Source: a virus | Lineage: Duplodnaviria > Heunggongvirae > Uroviricota > Caudoviricetes | Strand: one strand, 5' to 3' | Virus record (IMG/VR): IMGVR_UViG_2802429250_000001 | Length of the DNA stretch: 5,820 nt | In this document: one piece after another, positions 1 through 5,820 of the stretch | Position numbering within the stretch: the first letter of the stretch is position 1 | Layout: the number at the start of each line of letters is the position of its first letter | Notes under the pieces: model-generated | Databases searched by the model: none | What the model was told of the DNA's origin: nothing | The model's input: only the letters and a program-made list of their open reading frames with translations | Made by a program: the position numbers and the translations under genes

Positions 1-90
1 GCTGATCACCGTTACTACAGCACGCCAGAAATGCAGAATATTTTGCTGCAAAATGTCGTTGGTCACGCTGTCCGGAAAGCAAAAAATTTT

Positions 91-283
91 GCTGGTGGCG
101 CGACTGATGCGATTTTGTCAGGTCGCAAGGTGATGATCAATCTGATGTCTAATTTCGTTCTGGATAAAACAAAGGCGACCGCAGAGGGCCACCAGTGGGA
201 AAGCTACACACTTGAACACATCGCCAACAATGCCAGATTTGCGGCTGGTGGGCAATGTGATCAGTGTGCTGGCTTGCTGGTGG
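91..283 (+). other. Cluster of three co-oriented Chi octamers (5'-GCTGGTGG-3') at 91-98, 244-251 and 276-283
   Basis: Exact octamers read directly on the + strand; the surrounding 1-542 region has no convincing ORF. Further single Chi octamers: + strand 4165-4172; - strand (CCACCAGC on +) 1310-1317 and 4994-5001. Confidence 0.7.
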
Positions 284-542
284 GCTATTCCTGCTCTTTA
301 ACATTGCCATGCCGCGATGTTTTCCAGGTATGCGACCCCATTTTTGTGCGCCTGTACTCTTTAAGGAATTTCTCAAGGATAAACGCACAGGGCGCGAATC
401 TGTCTGACTCATATTCGTACGCTATCTTTCTGCGCTGTCTTTTCCGTGCCGGTGATGGTGTATTGGTCGATTCTTTGTTGGTCATTCTGTGTACCTGTAA
501 AGCAATGCGCCGGAGTTCCTCACACCACGGCGATGATAGTTA

Positions 543-848
543 TTATTCTGATTCTTTGGCCTTGCGGCGCTGGAGTTCTTCACGTGCGACGGTGACGAGC
601 TGCCCGATCTCCTCGACAGCTTTGACTCCGATTTTTTCCACCTGCGCCAGTGCATTGAGCGAAGAAACCAGGGGATTTTCTCCGCTTCCTTCTGCCTGGC
701 GGCGGGCGATCTCACCACGCATGGCGGTTACTATGAATCCGGCGTTGCTTTCGCCGTCCAGTTTTACGGATTCCATGCCTTCAAAAGCATCATGTGGGAT
801 ACGAATTGAAATCTGTTTTGATTTGTCGTTGATAGTGTTTTTTGCCAT
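543..848 (-). CDS. Small DNA-binding regulator, ribbon-helix-helix (Arc/CopG-like) N-terminus, about 101 aa; likely repressor of the divergent operon
   Basis: ORF-track frame 543-887 trimmed to the ATG at 846-848, which sits 6 nt after GGAGA (rc of 855-859); an alternative ATG at 852-854 has no spacing. N-terminus KQISIRIPHDAFEGMESVKLDGESNAGFIVTAMRGEIARRQ fits a beta-strand / helix / G-x-S turn / helix pattern. Stop is TAA (rc of 543-545). Confidence 0.55.
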   Translation of the reverse strand: MAKNTINDKSKQISIRIPHDAFEGMESVKLDGESNAGFIVTAMRGEIARRQAEGSGENPLVSSLNALAQVEKIGVKAVEEIGQLVTVAREELQRRKAKESE

Positions 849-870
849 GTGCATTCTCCTAAACAAAAGA

Positions 871-946
871 TGTGATTCAGTATACACAAAAAAGAATCAC
901 AAAAAATACTTGACCTGTGATTCAGTTAAATTTAATTTAAATCACA
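871..946. promoter_or_regulatory. Divergent promoter/operator region: two inverted repeats TGTGATTC...(G/A)AATCACA at 871-901 and 917-946, overlapping candidate promoter elements
   Basis: TGTGATTCAG at 871-880 and 917-926; GAATCACA at 894-901 and AAATCACA at 939-946. Rightward -35-like TTGACC at 910-915 with an A/T-rich -10 candidate 17 bp downstream (TAATTT 933-938); another TATAAA at 961-966. Leftward -10-like TATACT (rc of 879-884) lies inside operator 1. No transcript start-site data. Confidence 0.45.
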
Positions 947-971
947 CCTCAGTAAGAGGATATAAACGACA

Positions 972-1005
972 ACGCCCCGAACTGTTTGCGGCAGTAGCGG
1001 GGCGT
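972..1005 (+). promoter_or_regulatory. GC-rich hairpin in the operon leader (ACGCCCCG / CGGGGCGT stem, 18-nt loop)
   Basis: 972-979 ACGCCCCG is the exact reverse complement of 998-1005 CGGGGCGT. The loop has a further CTG/CAG pair (982-984 / 992-994). No U-tract follows on either strand, so it is not a canonical intrinsic terminator. It sits about 30 nt upstream of the ORF1 start. Confidence 0.4.
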
Positions 1006-1035
1006 CTAACCAAACCGTTAAATGAGGTAACGATT

Positions 1036-1401
1036 ATGGCTGGGGCACAGCATACCCAAACTCACCCTAAATTTATATACACCTTCCTGGCGGTGCACCG
1101 TGATTGCATCGCTGACGGTAAAAATACTGTTCATGTAGCCGCCGATACGCTGGTTGATGCCTGCGAGATGCTCAATGACATGGGCTATATCTCGGCAACA
1201 TGGAAAGGGCGTGAAGAAAACACGTTGTTTATTCAGAAATGCGAAAACAATTTTATCTGGCGTTTTATCGCCCTGAGTACGGCACAACCGCGCGTGATTC
1301 ACATCGAGGCCACCAGCGAACAGGAAGCACGCCAGCAATCTCCTGATGGCTGCGTGATGGTATTCGCTGCCCGTATTCGCCAGGAGGTGGAGCATGTGTA
1401 A
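1036..1401 (+). CDS. Hypothetical protein, ORF1 (121 aa), first gene of the rightward operon
   Basis: ATG 1036-1038 preceded by GAGG (1024-1027) at 8-nt spacing; same frame as the spurious 31-1401 ORF. Stop TAA 1399-1401 overlaps the ORF2 start (ATGTGTAA). Confidence 0.55.
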   Translation: MAGAQHTQTHPKFIYTFLAVHRDCIADGKNTVHVAADTLVDACEMLNDMGYISATWKGREENTLFIQKCENNFIWRFIALSTAQPRVIHIEATSEQEARQQSPDGCVMVFAARIRQEVEHV

Positions 1402-1618
1402 TGCAACATGGCCTGATGCAGCGGTAGACGCTATCAAAACGCTGATGGATTCACTTATTGAGATTTCTGCTATCGCTGGTGTGGCGCATAAACACGCAGC
1501 CAGAGAATCAGAATGCATCTCCCATTATTTAGCATTTGTGCAGCTGAAAGCCGATCAGGCACTGGATAAGGCCGGAAAAATTATCATGGCTGATGTACAG
1601 GAGGTGCACCATGCATAA
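1394..1618 (+). CDS. Hypothetical protein, ORF2 (74 aa)
   Basis: ATG 1394-1396 preceded by AGGAGG (1383-1388) at 5-nt spacing; 8-nt start/stop overlap with both neighbours. Confidence 0.55.
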   Translation: MCNATWPDAAVDAIKTLMDSLIEISAIAGVAHKHAARESECISHYLAFVQLKADQALDKAGKIIMADVQEVHHA

Positions 1619-1976
1619 CCTGTCAATTTCTGACCTTAACAGCATTCAGTTTGACGAGAAATTTACCGGGCAGTTGCTGGTCAATGTGGAGAACGGGCGC
1701 ATAGTGCGTAATTACCACCTGCCGGATGGTGCAATTGCCGGAAGCGTTGAAGCATTGCTGGAACTGGCGGAACGTGCGCGACTGATTAAGCCGTCAACGT
1801 GCCATCACGATGATGATCTGCATTTTACCGGGTGTATGGTGAGTCACTACGAAAACGGCGTTGAAGTATCCTGCGAACGTCTGCGTGATGATTGCTGTTT
1901 CGGCACACTGCCGGAATTTATCGAATTGCTGACCAGTTGCGGTTATCAGGTCATTCAGGGGGGTAAACATGCGTGA
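1611..1976 (+). CDS. Hypothetical Cys/His-rich protein, ORF3 (121 aa)
   Basis: Start moved from the track's 1593 to ATG 1611-1613, which has AGGAGG (1599-1604) 6 nt upstream and overlaps the ORF2 stop as ATGCATAA. C-terminal half holds C-HH-x-H-C-H-C-CC-C spacing (STCHHDDDLHFTGC ... SCERLRDDCCFG ... TSCGY). Confidence 0.6.
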   Translation: MHNLSISDLNSIQFDEKFTGQLLVNVENGRIVRNYHLPDGAIAGSVEALLELAERARLIKPSTCHHDDDLHFTGCMVSHYENGVEVSCERLRDDCCFGTLPEFIELLTSCGYQVIQGGKHA

Positions 1977-2202
1977 TGATCGTTTTAATTCCCTGAAACA
2001 GGAGTTTGATGGCGCACCGGAAGATACATCGGGCGCATTGTTGAGCATTGCTGACATGATGAAAGCTGCATATTTTCTTATCAATACCAGGGGCTACAAG
2101 TCAGAGGGTGAAATGATTCTTAGTATTGCGTCGGACTATGCTGAATATGTGGCAGAGACGCGTTACAGAAGAAAATCTCTGGAGGATGTAAGCCATGCAT
2201 AA
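1969..2202 (+). CDS. Hypothetical protein, ORF4 (77 aa)
   Basis: ATG 1969-1971 follows a GGGGGG run (1957-1963) at 5-nt spacing; overlaps the ORF3 stop as ATGCGTGA and the ORF5 start as ATGCATAA. Confidence 0.55.
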   Translation: MRDDRFNSLKQEFDGAPEDTSGALLSIADMMKAAYFLINTRGYKSEGEMILSIASDYAEYVAETRYRRKSLEDVSHA

Positions 2203-2395
2203 TCATGAAGCGCATGTACCCGTAGTGCTTAATGTGCCAGATGATTTCACCGGACGCGTGCTGGTTTACCTTGATAAAGAAAAAGTGAAATCACAATGCC
2301 GACTGAAAAGTAATGAGATTGTGGGTTCTCCTGAATTTTTTTCTGAACTCTGTATTCGTGCAGAAATAAAACCGGAACTGCTGACAGGAAAATAA
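2195..2395 (+). CDS. Hypothetical protein, ORF5 (66 aa), apparent paralogue of the ORF3 N-terminal half
   Basis: ATG 2195-2197 with GGAGG (2181-2185) upstream. Ungapped alignment with ORF3 residues 1-56 gives identity at F18-T19-G20, L23-V24, L37, I42, G44-S45, E47, E51-L52, R55-A56. Confidence 0.55.
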   Translation: MHNHEAHVPVVLNVPDDFTGRVLVYLDKEKVKSQCRLKSNEIVGSPEFFSELCIRAEIKPELLTGK

Positions 2396-2399
2396 AACC

Positions 2400-2690
2400 A
2401 TGAAAAGGAAAAATTCTGGCTTTACTGCCAGCGGTCTCTCTCGGCCTGAAATCAGACACGGAGATATTTACCGCGACACCAGACGTGGGGGACGAGTGGT
2501 TATTCGTCACGTTACGCCAGGCAATATCACCTACCGCCGTGAGGCTTACGAATATGACTGCGTAATGCCGCGCCGTCAGTTTGAGCGTGATTTTATTCTG
2601 GTTGAAAACAAACAACAGGCAGTGGCAAGACGTGCAGCCACGAATATTAAAAAAATCCGGGCAATGTTGGTTGCGGGAGGTAAGAAGTGA
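2400..2690 (+). CDS. Hypothetical basic (Arg/Lys-rich) protein, ORF6 (96 aa), translationally coupled to the replication gene
   Basis: ATG 2400-2402 with AGGAA (2386-2390) upstream; stop TGA 2688-2690 overlaps the GTG start of the next gene (GTGA). The translated product is visibly rich in Arg and Lys. Confidence 0.55.
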   Translation: MKRKNSGFTASGLSRPEIRHGDIYRDTRRGGRVVIRHVTPGNITYRREAYEYDCVMPRRQFERDFILVENKQQAVARRAATNIKKIRAMLVAGGKK

Positions 2691-4486
2691 AAAACGCACC
2701 GAATTTAAAATATCAGCCGAAGGATAAATTCACCGAGGTAATCATTTTTGCCGGGACGGATGCTTACGCCCATGCTCAACACTGGATTGAAAGCGAAGGA
2801 CGAAAACACGGCGATAACGTGCCTCCTGTTTACCTGGGGCCAAAGCAACTGGCAGACCTGGCGAATATCCGCATTGTCGACGATGAACGCCGCTTTGCGC
2901 GTGTCTATCTCGCGGGGGAGATAGAGCCAATCCAGATCAATGCTATTGCTGAAAAGCTGGCGCTGGCTGGTGTACAGGACGCGAAATTATACAAAGGTAT
3001 CACCGACCGGGAGCCGGAAAACTGGCGCGACTACCTGCAACGGATCCGCGAACAGGCAGAGAGTGGGGAAGTTTCAGCGATGAAATTAGCCACAAAAAAT
3101 ATTGACCTATCTAGGCCAGCACTAAATCAGATGGGAGCCAGCCAGAGAGGGGAAGTGTTACTTGAATATTATGGAAGAGCACTGGCTATAAATGATGATT
3201 CTGATGTAGTTCACCATTACAACGGAATTGTCTGGGTGCCTGTATCTGATAAGGAACTCCAGCGGGCTATGGCGCAGATTTTTATTGATGCGGAAATCAG
3301 CTATTCGCAGAACGCCATCAAATCGGCGGTCGATACCATGAAGTTAAGTTTGCCCGTAATGGGGAATACAGCCCGTAACCTGATTGGATTCAGTAACGGG
3401 GTATTTGATACCAGAACTGGTAATTTTCGGGAGCATAACAAAAACGACTGGTTGTTAATTGCCAGTGAATTACCTTTCAGCCCACCAGCAGAGGGGGAAA
3501 CGCTGGCAACACATGCGCCGAATTTCTGGAAGTGGTTGCGCCGTTCGGTGGCTGAGAATGACCGCAAGGCAGATCGCGTACTGGCGGCGTTATTCATGGT
3601 GCTGGCGAATCGGTACGACTGGCAGTTATTTCTTGAGGTAACGGGGCCGGGTGGAAGCGGTAAAAGCGTAATGGCGGAGATTTGCACTATGCTGGCGGGT
3701 AAGGCCAACACGGTATCGGCAAGCATGAAGGCGCTGGAAGATGCCAGGGAACGTGCGTTAGTGGTTGGCTTTTCGCTGATTATCATGCCGGATATGACCC
3801 GTTACGCTGGTGATGGTGCAGGGATTAAGGCCATTACAGGCGGTGATAAGGTGGCAATCGACCCGAAACATAAAGCCCCCTACTCAACACGCATTCAGGC
3901 GGTCGTGCTGGCGGTGAACAATAACGCCATGTCATTCAGTGACCGCAGCGGTGGGATATCACGTCGTCGGGTAATATTCAATTTTTCGGAAGTTGTACCG
4001 GAGAACGAACGTGACCCTATGCTGGCTGAAAAAATAGAAGGAGAGCTGGCGGTAGTGATTCGCCACCTGCTTACACGCTTTTCTGACCAGGACGAAGCTA
4101 AACGCCTGCTATATGAGCAGCAGAAATCAGAAGAAGCCCTGGTGATAAAACGCGAGGGCGATTCGCTGGTGGACTTCTGCGGCTATCTCATGTCGTCGGT
4201 AATGTGCGATGGCCTGTTAGTGGGTAATGCTGAAATTATTCCGTTCAGCCCGCGCAGGTATCTCTATCACGCCTATCTGGCGTATATGAGGGCACACGGA
4301 TTCGGTAAGCCCGTAACACTGACACGCTTCGGTAAGGATATGCCAGGGGCAATGGCGGAATACGGCAGGGAGTATATGAAACGGAAAACGAAGCATGGCT
4401 TGCGTTCAAACGTGATACTGACAGAGGATTCAGAAGACTGGATGCCCTCATGTGCATCGGTCACAAATGACGATGGCAAAAATTAA
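2687..4486 (+). CDS. Replication initiator/helicase, phage P4 alpha family (D5_N-like region + SF3 helicase P-loop + C-terminal region), 599 aa
   Basis: GTG start 2687-2689 with GGGAGG (2675-2680) at 6-nt spacing. Walker A GPGGSGKS at aa 320-327 (nt 3644-3667); Walker B-like SLIIMPD; SF3 motif C-like VLAVNNN; D5_N-like stretch GFSNGVFDTRTGNFREH. Iterons of the P4 alpha-binding type lie immediately downstream. Confidence 0.85.
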   Translation: MKNAPNLKYQPKDKFTEVIIFAGTDAYAHAQHWIESEGRKHGDNVPPVYLGPKQLADLANIRIVDDERRFARVYLAGEIEPIQINAIAEKLALAGVQDAKLYKGITDREPENWRDYLQRIREQAESGEVSAMKLATKNIDLSRPALNQMGASQRGEVLLEYYGRALAINDDSDVVHHYNGIVWVPVSDKELQRAMAQIFIDAEISYSQNAIKSAVDTMKLSLPVMGNTARNLIGFSNGVFDTRTGNFREHNKNDWLLIASELPFSPPAEGETLATHAPNFWKWLRRSVAENDRKADRVLAALFMVLANRYDWQLFLEVTGPGGSGKSVMAEICTMLAGKANTVSASMKALEDARERALVVGFSLIIMPDMTRYAGDGAGIKAITGGDKVAIDPKHKAPYSTRIQAVVLAVNNNAMSFSDRSGGISRRRVIFNFSEVVPENERDPMLAEKIEGELAVVIRHLLTRFSDQDEAKRLLYEQQKSEEALVIKREGDSLVDFCGYLMSSVMCDGLLVGNAEIIPFSPRRYLYHAYLAYMRAHGFGKPVTLTRFGKDMPGAMAEYGREYMKRKTKHGLRSNVILTEDSEDWMPSCASVTNDDGKN

Positions 4487-4500
4487 ACTTATGGAATAAC

Positions 4501-4654
4501 TGTTCATCAAACTATTCACTGTTCACCTTTTTGATTATTTGTTGAGCTTTAAGGGTGAACAGTGGTGAACAGTTGGTGAATAGTTTTTGTGAAACTGTTC
4601 ACCCCTTAACACAATGAATTAAAAGGAGAAACGGAAAAGGTGAACAGGTGAAGG
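4501..4654. repeat. Iteron cluster, P4 ori/crr type: about 8 copies of TGTTCACC / GGTGAACA in both orientations
   Basis: TGTTCATC 4501-4508; TGTTCACC 4520-4527 and 4596-4603; GGTGAACA 4554-4561, 4564-4571 and 4639-4646; GGTGAATA 4575-4582; GGTGAAGG 4647-4654. The three copies at 4554-4582 are spaced 10-11 bp apart. Confidence 0.75.
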
Positions 4655-4685
4655 GTTAAAATGCAAAAATTTTATTTTATTGCTG
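4655..4685. other. AT-rich tract flanking the iterons (candidate DNA-unwinding element)
   Basis: aagggttaaaatgcaaaaattttattttattg, immediately after the last iteron. Confidence 0.4.
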
Positions 4686-4741
4686 TGAGGTAAAGGCTGT
4701 GACAACGAAACACACAAAAAACACAATCTCACGCCCTTGAT

Positions 4742-4942
4742 TTGACAGAACACAGGCTGAGGGGGGCGATAAAAATTATCGACCGCAACGCCGGGGAAGG
4801 ATACGCGAAAGTACATCCCGAACTGATAAGCGCATTCATGACAACGGCAGCGGCAAACTTTGCCACGCTGACAGAACGGGAGATTGCCGAAGCTGAACAG
4901 GTGACAATCATCAACGTTAAAACCGGAGAGCAAACAGCATGA
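4742..4942 (+). CDS. Hypothetical small protein or decayed gene fragment (no canonical start)
   Basis: The track ORF starts at TTG 4742 with no Shine-Dalgarno; the internal ATG 4838 also lacks one. The frame is open from 4703. Translation (GAIKIIDRNAGEGYAKVHPELISAF...) looks protein-like, but start support is poor. Confidence 0.25.
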   Translation: MTEHRLRGAIKIIDRNAGEGYAKVHPELISAFMTTAAANFATLTEREIAEAEQVTIINVKTGEQTA

Positions 4943-5157
4943 CGGTACAAATATCCGCTTACGGGCGGCAGGTGGCTGATCTGCACTCAAAAACCACCAG
5001 CAAGGGAACACCAATGGCAATGGCGAGTATGGCAGTTCCCCTTCCGCGCAGCCAGGCAGATGACGGAACGGCGAAACGTGGCTGGTCTGGTTATCGCAGA
5101 CAGCGTAATCAGTGCGCGAACGGTGCGGCTGGGCGGCAAAAAAGGCCAGCAGAGTGA
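4939..5157 (+). CDS. Hypothetical small basic protein (72 aa)
   Basis: ATG 4939-4941 preceded by GGAGAG (4926-4931) at 7-nt spacing; overlaps the upstream ORF stop (ATGA). Product is low-complexity and basic, so it may be a gene remnant. Confidence 0.35.
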   Translation: MTVQISAYGRQVADLHSKTTSKGTPMAMASMAVPLPRSQADDGTAKRGWSGYRRQRNQCANGAAGRQKRPAE

Positions 5158-5234
5158 TCCGTACGGTGATGGAATACCATTTGGGGATATCGTATAAATA
5201 AACCTTAGCATAGCGTTATATAAAGGTGATATAT

Positions 5235-5561
5235 ATGATTTACTTTGTGAAGAAATTTAGTGAAATAGTGGAAAAGTCTTCTGGTGCTTTGTCTTTCGGG
5301 ATTATACAGAGTCTCGTTATGATAGGTATAATTGCAAATTTATCTTCTCAAACAGGTGTAAGGTATTTCATCTTGCTTACTATTGCATTTATTGCAACTA
5401 TAAGTATTGCATTATGTATGTTGAGTATAATATCTGTTATTAACGAAGTGACAGGAAAACATAAGTACATGAAGTTTTTGTTTGGGATTCTGCTGTACCC
5501 TTCTTTTATTGGTGTTATTCTTTCTGCGTACCTGAGTATTAAAGCACTAATAGTCAGTTAA
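5235..5561 (+). CDS. Small integral membrane protein (about 108 aa, three predicted transmembrane helices) in an AT-rich islet
   Basis: ATG 5235-5237 with AAAGGTGA (5222-5229) upstream, preferred over the track's GTG 5226. Three hydrophobic stretches: GALSFGIIQSLVMIGIIANL, VRYFILLTIAFIATISIALCMLSIISVI, FLFGILLYPSFIGVILSAYLSI. A 50-nt sample counted 30% G+C against about 50% for the rest of the window. TATAAA at 5193-5198 is a candidate -10. Confidence 0.6.
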   Translation: MIYFVKKFSEIVEKSSGALSFGIIQSLVMIGIIANLSSQTGVRYFILLTIAFIATISIALCMLSIISVINEVTGKHKYMKFLFGILLYPSFIGVILSAYLSIKALIVS

Positions 5562-5587
5562 TTATCTGGGTAATAAGCAATAAAGAA

Positions 5588-5601
5588 ATTTCTATAGAAA
5601 T
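5588..5601. repeat. Perfect 14-bp palindrome ATTTCTATAGAAAT
   Basis: Read directly; it lies between the membrane-protein stop (5559-5561) and the next + strand start (5641). Confidence 0.3.
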
Positions 5602-5640
5602 AAGCCATCAAAAGGAACGACGATAATACGGATAATATCG

Positions 5641-5820
5641 ATGAAAAGTACACATGGAAAAGCTGACCATCAACAGAAATTACGGTATGCCACAAAAATG
5701 GTACAGGAGACGCAACAGCAGGATAAAACCACATCGGCATATAAAGTGATGCCCGGTAATCAGAACGCGCAGCAGAAGCCCACAGGGGCGACACCGTGGC
5801 GGCATATGACCAAACGCCAG
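5641..5820 (+). CDS. 5' part of a hypothetical gene that runs off the right edge of the window
   Basis: The frame is open from 5584 to the window end. First ATG at 5641 (MKSTHGKADHQQKLRYATKMVQETQQQDKTTSAYKVMPGNQNAQQKPTGATPWRHMTKRQ...); alternative ATGs at 5698 and 5749. Absent from the ORF track because it has no stop in the window. Shine-Dalgarno is weak. Confidence 0.35.
   Translation, partial: MKSTHGKADHQQKLRYATKMVQETQQQDKTTSAYKVMPGNQNAQQKPTGATPWRHMTKRQ

Follow-up and report, generated by a model that had tools for sequence, protein, structure and literature searches.

A small three-helix membrane-protein gene in an AT-rich cassette of an Escherichia coli phage satellite, with relatives behind the primases of other satellites

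Results

An AT-rich islet with one small membrane-protein gene

The DNA analysed here, called the window throughout, is a 5,820-nucleotide stretch of a Caudoviricetes record (IMG/VR IMGVR_UViG_2802429250_000001), and this report concerns an AT-rich islet at its positions 5170-5640 together with the single open reading frame (ORF) of 108 amino acids that the islet carries, here named ORF108. An original prediction made from the letters alone had described about 470 bp at roughly 30% G+C in a context of about 50%, which agrees with the measured 31.4% for the islet versus 48.7% over positions 1-5169. When 471-bp segments were slid along the window (mean 47.5% G+C, standard deviation 4.6), the minimum of 31.0% was found to start at position 5179. 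The features of the islet are as follows.

5181-5608 (approximate extent), no strand: inserted AT-rich cassette (moron), between the ssb end and the spacer before proQ
5193-5224, plus strand: AT-rich spacer with two TATAAA hexamers, a candidate promoter
5222-5230, plus strand: Shine-Dalgarno sequence AAAGGTGAT, read from the sequence, 5 nt before the ATG of ORF108
5235-5561 including the stop, plus strand: ORF108, an intact ORF with an ATG start, 108 amino acids, three predicted transmembrane helices
5588-5601, no strand: perfect 14-bp palindrome ATTTCTATAGAAAT, 3' of ORF108

The G+C fractions at the first, second and third codon positions were 0.33, 0.32 and 0.31 in ORF108, compared with 0.58, 0.40 and 0.54 in the primase gene of the same window. 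Since ORF108 is AT-rich at all three codon positions, its low G+C is more than an effect of its hydrophobic residues.

The strong Shine-Dalgarno sequence and the three hydrophobic helices that had been predicted for the 108-amino-acid product were likewise recovered, the helices by both hydropathy and structure modelling. Hydropathy places the hydrophobic segments at about residues 17-36, 44-69 and 81-107, with a grand average of hydropathy of 1.24, and the AlphaFold2 model, computed with a 17-sequence family alignment, has helices at residues 2-36, 42-73 and 77-107 with a mean predicted local distance difference test score of 74.8. The charged N-terminal 14 residues and the lysine-rich loop at residues 70-80 suggest a topology with the N-terminus inside and the C-terminus outside (N-in/C-out). 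The C-terminus reads ...SIKALIVS and bears one charge. Within the helices, the polar or small residues S16, G17, Q25, G57 and G93 are conserved. Homologues of 26-36% identity have the same length as ORF108 and share its motifs: helix 1 begins with E-x-(S/C)-S-G-A-L-S-L...Q, helix 2 contains a glycine and helix 3 contains YP-x-x-I-G-x-L-L-S-A.

Comparison of ORF108 with its 76% identical relative P0002 gave a ratio of nonsynonymous to synonymous substitution rates (dN/dS) of 0.21, and the differences at codon positions 1, 2 and 3 numbered 18, 6 and 38, so that the third position dominates. ORF108 was intact in every copy fetched, with 0-2 amino-acid changes, and it stays intact in the lineage in which the adjoining ssb and proQ genes are pseudogenised. 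Given this dN/dS value and the intact frame beside decayed neighbours, ORF108 is, as judged from its substitution pattern, a genuine and selectively constrained gene.

Presence and absence of the cassette between ssb and proQ

At the homologous loci L003 and L025, a family ORF lies between an intact gene for a 140-amino-acid SSB and an intact gene for a 175-amino-acid ProQ. The empty-site sibling L022 (strain ETEC6335) has only 36 nt from the ssb stop to the proQ start. The extra block in L003 measures 436 bp and is flanked by two copies of ATACCGT, of which L022 has one; in the window, the left junction reads ATACCAT (5174-5180) and the right copy, at about 5600-5608, has degenerated. As evidence for an insertion mechanism this 7-nt repeat is weak. 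The presence/absence polymorphism of a single-gene block of about 430 bp between ssb and proQ is nevertheless evident. The L003 cassette is also compositionally distinct from its flanking genes, and among other relatives the primase leads directly to proQ (L006) or ssb leads directly to capsid genes (L002). The view that the islet is a foreign-looking insert in a mobile element is thus borne out by the flanks, siblings being found in which ssb and proQ adjoin and the cassette is absent. Damage to ssb and proQ by the insertion of the cassette was considered and rejected, because L003 and L025 carry the cassette with both genes intact.

The same block of decayed ssb, ORF108 and frameshifted proQ, 98.6% identical, is present in strain APEC IMT5155, in an element that differs in its integrase, its attachment (att) site (tRNA-Thr by proA) and its terminal cargo, which indicates that the block moved or recombined between elements. 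Taken together, we hold it very probable that the islet is a genuine cargo cassette for a membrane protein.

A small family that recurs behind satellite primases

An exhaustive HMMER search of 1.84 billion representative proteins returned 13 members, mostly of 106-120 amino acids, and a profile search of 5.8 billion clusters returned 33 members, all unnamed or "hypothetical", with Klebsiella, Pantoea and Kosakonia as the named sources. By these searches the ORF108 family is a very small and undescribed family of the Enterobacterales. The islet itself was found in 11 of 5,426 complete E. coli genomes, of which 1,729 hold relatives of the flanking sequence. This distribution and the 13 clusters among 1.84 billion proteins show that the gene is not a housekeeping membrane protein, an outcome that would have spoken against the original prediction. 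A metagenome scan with one subfamily found 8 loci. The L028- and L017-type subfamilies were absent from the complete E. coli genomes, tblastn against phage genomes gave no match to ORF108, and a scan of a genome-contig collection yielded no confirmed relative.

Of 11 homologue loci examined, 9 have a family gene of lower G+C content than the flank upstream of it. A 46% identical copy on a Klebsiella variicola plasmid has 51% G+C, which indicates that the family is not intrinsically AT-rich. The genomic contexts are listed below.

Window lineage, PICI (phage-inducible chromosomal island): ORF after the ssb remnant, about 750 nt 3' of the primase
L025/L003, related element with intact ssb and proQ (L025 from a viral-contig collection): ORF between ssb and proQ
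L026, integrase/D5-primase satellite: ORF about 280 nt after the D5-type primase; the contig ends about 700 bp past the ORF, with no capsid genes seen
L028/L029/L036, capsid-forming PICI: ORF about 280 nt after the D5-type primase, before capsid E and decoration D genes
L017/L018, integrase/AlpA/DUF4222/D5-primase element with a capsid-protease gene: ORF 267 nt after the primase
L016, classical P4-like satellite (Psu, Delta, AlpA, Zn-ribbon/Toprim/D5 primase): ORF between the primase and the element end
L010, L019, L020 and L031-L033, fixed chromosomal locus: ORF about 220 nt after a sigma-54 two-component response-regulator gene, 82-87% identical to the capsid-forming-PICI copy
Klebsiella aerogenes: solitary copy beside the pqq operon
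Pantoea islets with WapI, DUF1493 and DUF3658 genes: copies 74-79% identical to the P4-like copy
Klebsiella plasmid: solitary copy near HicAB

Family members of 26-30% identity follow the primase in L016, L017/L018, L026 and L028/L029/L036, and the same placement holds for L025 and the window lineage; in all six satellite lineages the family ORF is co-directional with the primase operon. Judged by gene order, the family therefore recurs 3' of the primase in at least six satellite lineages that include PICIs, capsid-forming PICIs and a P4-like satellite, and to our knowledge this recurrence across satellite types has not been reported. With about a dozen dereplicated contexts behind it, the distribution is that expected of a mobile cargo gene which stands alone and markedly prefers the slot after the primase in satellites. 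No neighbour gene was conserved across the family contexts, which suggests that ORF108 acts alone. The interval from primase to att site in P4-like satellites has been described as a minor defence hotspot that holds 7% of P4 defence systems (NAR 2026, PMC13586616), and the L016 copy lies within this interval; the post-primase cargo slot has so far been noted only marginally.

The 82-87% identity between the copies at the sigma-54 locus and the capsid-forming-PICI copy suggests transfer between satellite and chromosome. The copies at this chromosomal locus vary at their C-terminal ends (111, 127 and 141 amino acids), and the L019 copy adjoins an insertion-sequence-like pair. In two Pantoea islets (L009 8869-9615 and L013 8872-9618), the same 248-amino-acid gene without a Pfam domain lies about 540 nt downstream of the family member; this gene is absent from all other family contexts, and the two could form a local two-gene module. 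The L017 satellite (1448-2284, 12870-13589), with integrase, AlpA, putAbiC, DUF4222, D5 primase and capsid-protease gene, apparently sits inside the portal gene of a lambda-like prophage, where Phage_portal_2 is split into parts of 278 and 239 amino acids followed by a second capsid-protease gene.

Expression signals and the palindrome

ORF108 had been credited with a TATAAA box of its own. Two such hexamers do lie upstream of it (5193-5198 and 5219-5224), and the upstream block AGCATAGCGTT-TATA is kept in L003; that they amount to a promoter is unsubstantiated, since a sigma-70 consensus scan upstream of ORF108 found no -35/-10 pair, and the sole strong promoter-like match of the consensus scan on the plus strand falls within ORF108 itself. 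No intrinsic terminator was found after ORF108 in the window, and for the homologue in L003, whose Shine-Dalgarno sequence ACGGAT is weaker than that of the window, neither a consensus promoter nor a terminator was detectable. In L016, a strong terminator lies between the primase and the family ORF, which indicates that the ORF has an independent promoter there.

The perfect palindrome that had been pointed out behind the ORF is present, and its significance did not hold. In simulations matched for composition, about 7% gave a perfect palindrome of 14 bp or more by chance, the one seen here is not kept in L003, and the spacer RNA around it folds no better than shuffled sequences (z = 0.14), with no stable hairpin. 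A role as terminator or operator was rejected on these grounds and because the sequence is not terminator-like; the palindrome is probably without function. A scan with Rfam found no family in or near the islet.

The host element

The islet lies in the middle of an integrative element of about 13.5 kb that extends up to dinD and, in strains such as ABU 83972 and A41, is integrated between yicC and dinD. Its first part consists of the integrase gene, a hypothetical gene, a small helix-turn-helix regulator gene, an AntA/AntB antirepressor gene, a YlcI/YnfO-family gene on the opposite strand, an Icd-like gene and several small genes. These are followed by a DUF4222 gene, the D5-type primase gene, a small gene, ssb, ORF108, a ProQ/FinO-family gene, PerC, five small genes and a terminal cargo gene. 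The suggestion, drawn from an analogy with P4, that the islet lies at or beyond the element boundary was therefore wrong, as the satellite continues through proQ, perC, the small genes and the terminal cargo to dinD.

The integrase, a small helix-turn-helix regulator in the position of AlpA, the primase, a PerC-like gene, a size of about 10-15 kb, site-specific integration and the lack of virion and lysis genes are all PICI features, and the organisation described for E. coli PICIs such as EcCIMP1 is the same as that of this element (PMC11773190). On the gene maps at yicC/dinD and tRNA-Thr/proA we assign the host element to the PICI-type phage satellites of E. coli. A strictly P4-like satellite was considered and rejected: none of the P4 core genes psu, delta and sid is annotated in the element, and the primase lacks the Zn-ribbon and Toprim domains of an alpha-type primase (Pfam finds D5_N, DUF5906 and Pox_D5 only), although TGTTCACC repeats are present nonetheless. 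The IMT5155 element occupies the same att site as EcCIMP1, whose superinfection immunity is unexplained. We claim no link between that immunity and ORF108, since the post-primase genes of EcCIMP1 are described differently and none of the 11 genomes with the cassette is that of E. coli MP1.

Compared with its nearest relatives, the window is a mosaic. Positions 141-1253 and 2543-3118 have no megablast match in the ABU 83972 and A41 elements, and their flanks are 96-99.6% identical; the unmatched stretch 2543-3118 takes in the 3' terminus of the DUF4222 gene together with roughly the first 144 codons of the primase gene, and 141-1253 does match the APEC IMT5155 element. The terminal slot holds a 662-amino-acid "RNA-binding domain-containing protein" at the yicC/dinD site (L001/L024 15290-17278) and a DUF4747 protein with a hypothetical protein at the tRNA-Thr/proA site (L023 15266-16758), and it looks like the real variable, defence-type hotspot of the PICI backbone.

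Flanking genes and the putative origin

The genes and repeats around the cassette within the window are as follows.

2687-4486, plus strand: D5-type primase/helicase gene (Pfam D5_N, DUF5906, Pox_D5)
4501-4646, no strand: TGTTCACC repeats of both orientations, clustered just behind the primase gene
4939-5197, plus strand: decayed ssb gene, directly upstream of the cassette, as aligned with the intact 140-amino-acid SSB gene of L003
5641-5820, plus strand: ProQ/FinO-family gene (5' part), immediately 3' of the cassette

In the window, ssb carries two internal deletions, and the stop that should follow its conserved C-terminal tip ...DGIPF is gone. The gene is flagged as frameshifted or partial by the Prokaryotic Genome Annotation Pipeline (PGAP), and the intact homologue matches Pfam SSB. 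Identical ssb lesions are common to copies at two different chromosomal att sites. In proQ, a 1-nt deletion breaks the frame from the ancestral start at 5654, and the frame from the ATG at 5641 rejoins ProQ at residue 28, so the gene may be rescued via this upstream ATG; PGAP calls it a "frameshifted" pseudogene and another gene caller gives a product of 176 amino acids.

Directly behind the primase gene, TGTTCACC occurs seven times within 146 bp (five exact matches and two with one mismatch) in a stretch of 35% G+C. Over the whole window there are 14 matches versus 4.9 expected, a number that no shuffle reached. We take this octamer to be the iteron bound by the alpha protein in ori and crr of P4, and positions 4501-4646 are probably the replication origin of the satellite, even though the element is without psu, delta and sid of P4.

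Discussion

Function of ORF108

As the explanation that best covers the whole of these data we propose that the islet is a moron cassette, that its product is a membrane protein and that this protein serves in exclusion of phages, to which together we assign a probability of about 0.35; the exclusion role by itself, which is drawn by analogy, is tentative and well short of even odds. ORF108 would be an inner-membrane protein whose N-terminus faces the cytoplasm and whose C-terminus faces the periplasm. It would act alone in protecting the satellite-carrying cell at the membrane, by superinfection exclusion. Its action there might be to keep the DNA of an infecting phage from crossing the membrane, or to disturb how the ejection conduit is assembled, in the manner of P22 SieA, HK97 gp15 and T4 Imm. 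The gene is carried by satellites and has close copies in chromosomal islets, which suggests that it benefits the cell carrying it and has no core role in the satellite. In its widest form, the proposal would be that ORF108 and its relatives are a new one-protein, membrane-level anti-phage exclusion system that resides preferentially in the post-primase/origin slot of satellites and is exchanged among PICIs, capsid-forming PICIs, P4-like satellites and chromosomal islets, which we consider rather doubtful.

Several results weigh against this proposal. Neither experiment nor homology ties the family to phage exclusion. Searches of Pfam, PHROGs, PADLOC and NCBIfam with ORF108 and 29 members gave no consistent match, only scattered weak ones typical of hydrophobic sequences, and Foldseek of the AlphaFold model against BFVD and the Protein Data Bank (PDB) retrieved only generic three-helix bundles at expectation values (E) above 0.1. 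Alignment of the family with P22 SieA by hhalign gave a probability of 0.1, and the FxRYPxEAxxFNK motif of SieA is absent. About half of the distinct family contexts are not satellites. PGAP leaves ORF108 unannotated in the three RefSeq records for which annotation was fetched (NZ_CP028735, NC_017631 and NZ_CP005930). What weakens the exclusion model most is the failure to identify a promoter for expression in the uninduced state; with neither promoter nor terminator detected, ORF108 is perhaps expressed only with the induced satellite operon, which would better fit a role in the life cycle. Further searches were equally empty, as PADLOC-DB 2.0 gave no match to ORF108 at E up to 10 and PDB sequences gave none to the family profile.

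An alternative that we regard as unlikely is that ORF108 is an orphan immunity protein, which would neutralise a membrane-targeting toxin (a pore-forming colicin or bacteriocin, or a pore-forming effector of a type VI secretion or contact-dependent inhibition system) in the inner membrane by binding its helices within the bilayer. In size, number of transmembrane segments and predicted N-in/C-out topology ORF108 resembles the E1-type colicin immunity proteins as we know that family, and the conserved S16, G17, Q25, G57 and G93 within the helices would suit intramembrane recognition. Like orphan immunity genes, the family gene stands alone and is mobile; a Klebsiella plasmid carries one copy, and the Pantoea copies share a low-G+C islet with a WapI-family immunity gene and DUF1493 and DUF3658 genes. 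However, no toxin gene adjoins the family gene in about 12 contexts, none of the 29 members matches the colicin or microcin immunity families of Pfam, and the recurrent placement behind satellite primases would be left unexplained. ORF108 could instead be a membrane effector in the lytic cycle of the satellite, either a depolarising toxin or abortive-infection effector or a modulator of lysis timing like a holin or antiholin, co-transcribed with the replication genes after induction. Besides the shared direction with the primase operon in all six satellite lineages, the lack of a detectable promoter and terminator of its own in the window and in L003 would agree with this, as would a size and three transmembrane segments like those of class I holins such as P22 gp13, and small transmembrane proteins are common effectors of the defence systems in satellite hotspots (PMC9122126). 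Still, the strong terminator of L016 separates the ORF from the primase, no sensor or antitoxin partner is conserved, and the solitary chromosomal copies at a fixed locus speak against strong toxicity. For lysis in particular, ORF108 is without the charged C-terminal tail of class I holins, the element has no endolysin or spanin gene, the window and L003 share no conserved dual start, and hhalign against gp13 gave a probability of 0.15. We therefore consider a lytic-cycle effector quite unlikely.

The original prediction had named holin-like proteins among the possibilities, beside toxins, abortive-infection effectors and immunity proteins. Assignment of ORF108 to the class I holins fails because three of their defining features are absent: the charged tail, lysis genes nearby and a conserved dual start. 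The members gave no Pfam match to holin families, and only one of 29 matched a PHROG holin family, at E = 0.1. A dual start at the GTG at 5226 was rejected, as this GTG lies inside the Shine-Dalgarno sequence and an in-frame TAA stands just upstream of the ATG in L003. A type I toxin (below about 60 amino acids, with a single transmembrane segment and an antisense RNA) is excluded by the 108 amino acids and three transmembrane segments of ORF108, and the islet has no Rfam match. Finally, ORF108 might be a hitch-hiker without current function at this locus, or might have a satellite-intrinsic role unrelated to conflict, for example in tethering replication to the membrane. The module around ORF108 is in decay, with an ssb pseudogene and a frameshift in proQ; the family is rare and ignored by PGAP, and ORF108 adjoins the module of origin, primase and ssb. 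Nevertheless, purifying selection acts across homologues of 76%, 46% and 26-30% identity with conserved motifs, ORF108 remains intact while its neighbours decay, and the family occurs without replication genes in chromosomes and on a plasmid, so that we find this explanation improbable.

Significance

Satellites and prophages are a main source of new genes for protection against phages and between bacteria, and it is single small membrane proteins that most often escape notice; ORF108 is an example of an AT-rich small membrane-protein gene overlooked by annotation. It is a compact and testable candidate: the well-studied strain ABU 83972 has it, elements with an empty site offer natural controls, and distant homologues occupy the same slot in several satellite types. 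Should it prove to exclude phages or to neutralise a membrane toxin, the family would be new and the post-primase slot would be worth searching for more; without a phenotype, ORF108 would be an ordinary orphan moron.

Comparison with known systems

In the definition of Hendrix and Juhala, the classic moron comes with a promoter and a terminator of its own. The ORF108 cassette resembles a moron in that it is one gene between genes that are adjacent in siblings, is odd in composition and is not needed for the core functions of the element; it differs in that no promoter or terminator was detected for ORF108, and in that its carrier is a PICI satellite rather than a phage.

E1-type immunity proteins against pore-forming colicins (Cei, Iia, Cki) have about 100-115 amino acids and three transmembrane helices, are often encoded by AT-rich genes and act within the inner membrane. 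ORF108 shares their size, with its 108 amino acids, and their three helices, but shows no sequence or profile match to them, has no colicin or lysis gene nearby and is carried by satellites, not Col plasmids. Class I holins (lambda S and P22 gp13) are also alike in having about 105-108 amino acids and three hydrophobic helices. In contrast to P22 gp13, which ends in the charged tail ...KRFAAKKAGVDDANQQ, ORF108 ends in ...SIKALIVS, and a dual-start motif, a neighbouring endolysin or spanin gene and a profile match to holins are all lacking.

P22 SieA is the product of a single gene, resides in the inner membrane with three predicted transmembrane segments, and is sufficient alone to block the DNA ejection conduit (PMC10883804). 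Its gene (L037 13336-13830) also forms an AT-rich island, with 33.7% G+C versus 47.1% for P22. SieA differs from ORF108 in its length of 162-164 amino acids and its conserved cytoplasmic FxRYPxEAxxFNK motif, which the 108-residue ORF108 lacks along with any profile similarity; the two are alike in being encoded by a single gene, in having three predicted transmembrane segments and in lying in AT-rich accessory DNA on a temperate element.

Compared with the cargo of defence hotspots, ORF108 matches no known defence family, and the window copy is internal, between ssb and proQ, not in the terminal slot with the 662-amino-acid or DUF4747 cargo. It is similar to such cargo as a variable gene of satellites with a homologue, that of L016, in the primase-to-att interval (PMC9122126, PMC13586616). 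Morons and accessory membrane proteins are well known from temperate elements, and the family of ORF108 is an undescribed one; ORF108 makes a reasonable candidate for a small phenotypic screen and is not a surprise.

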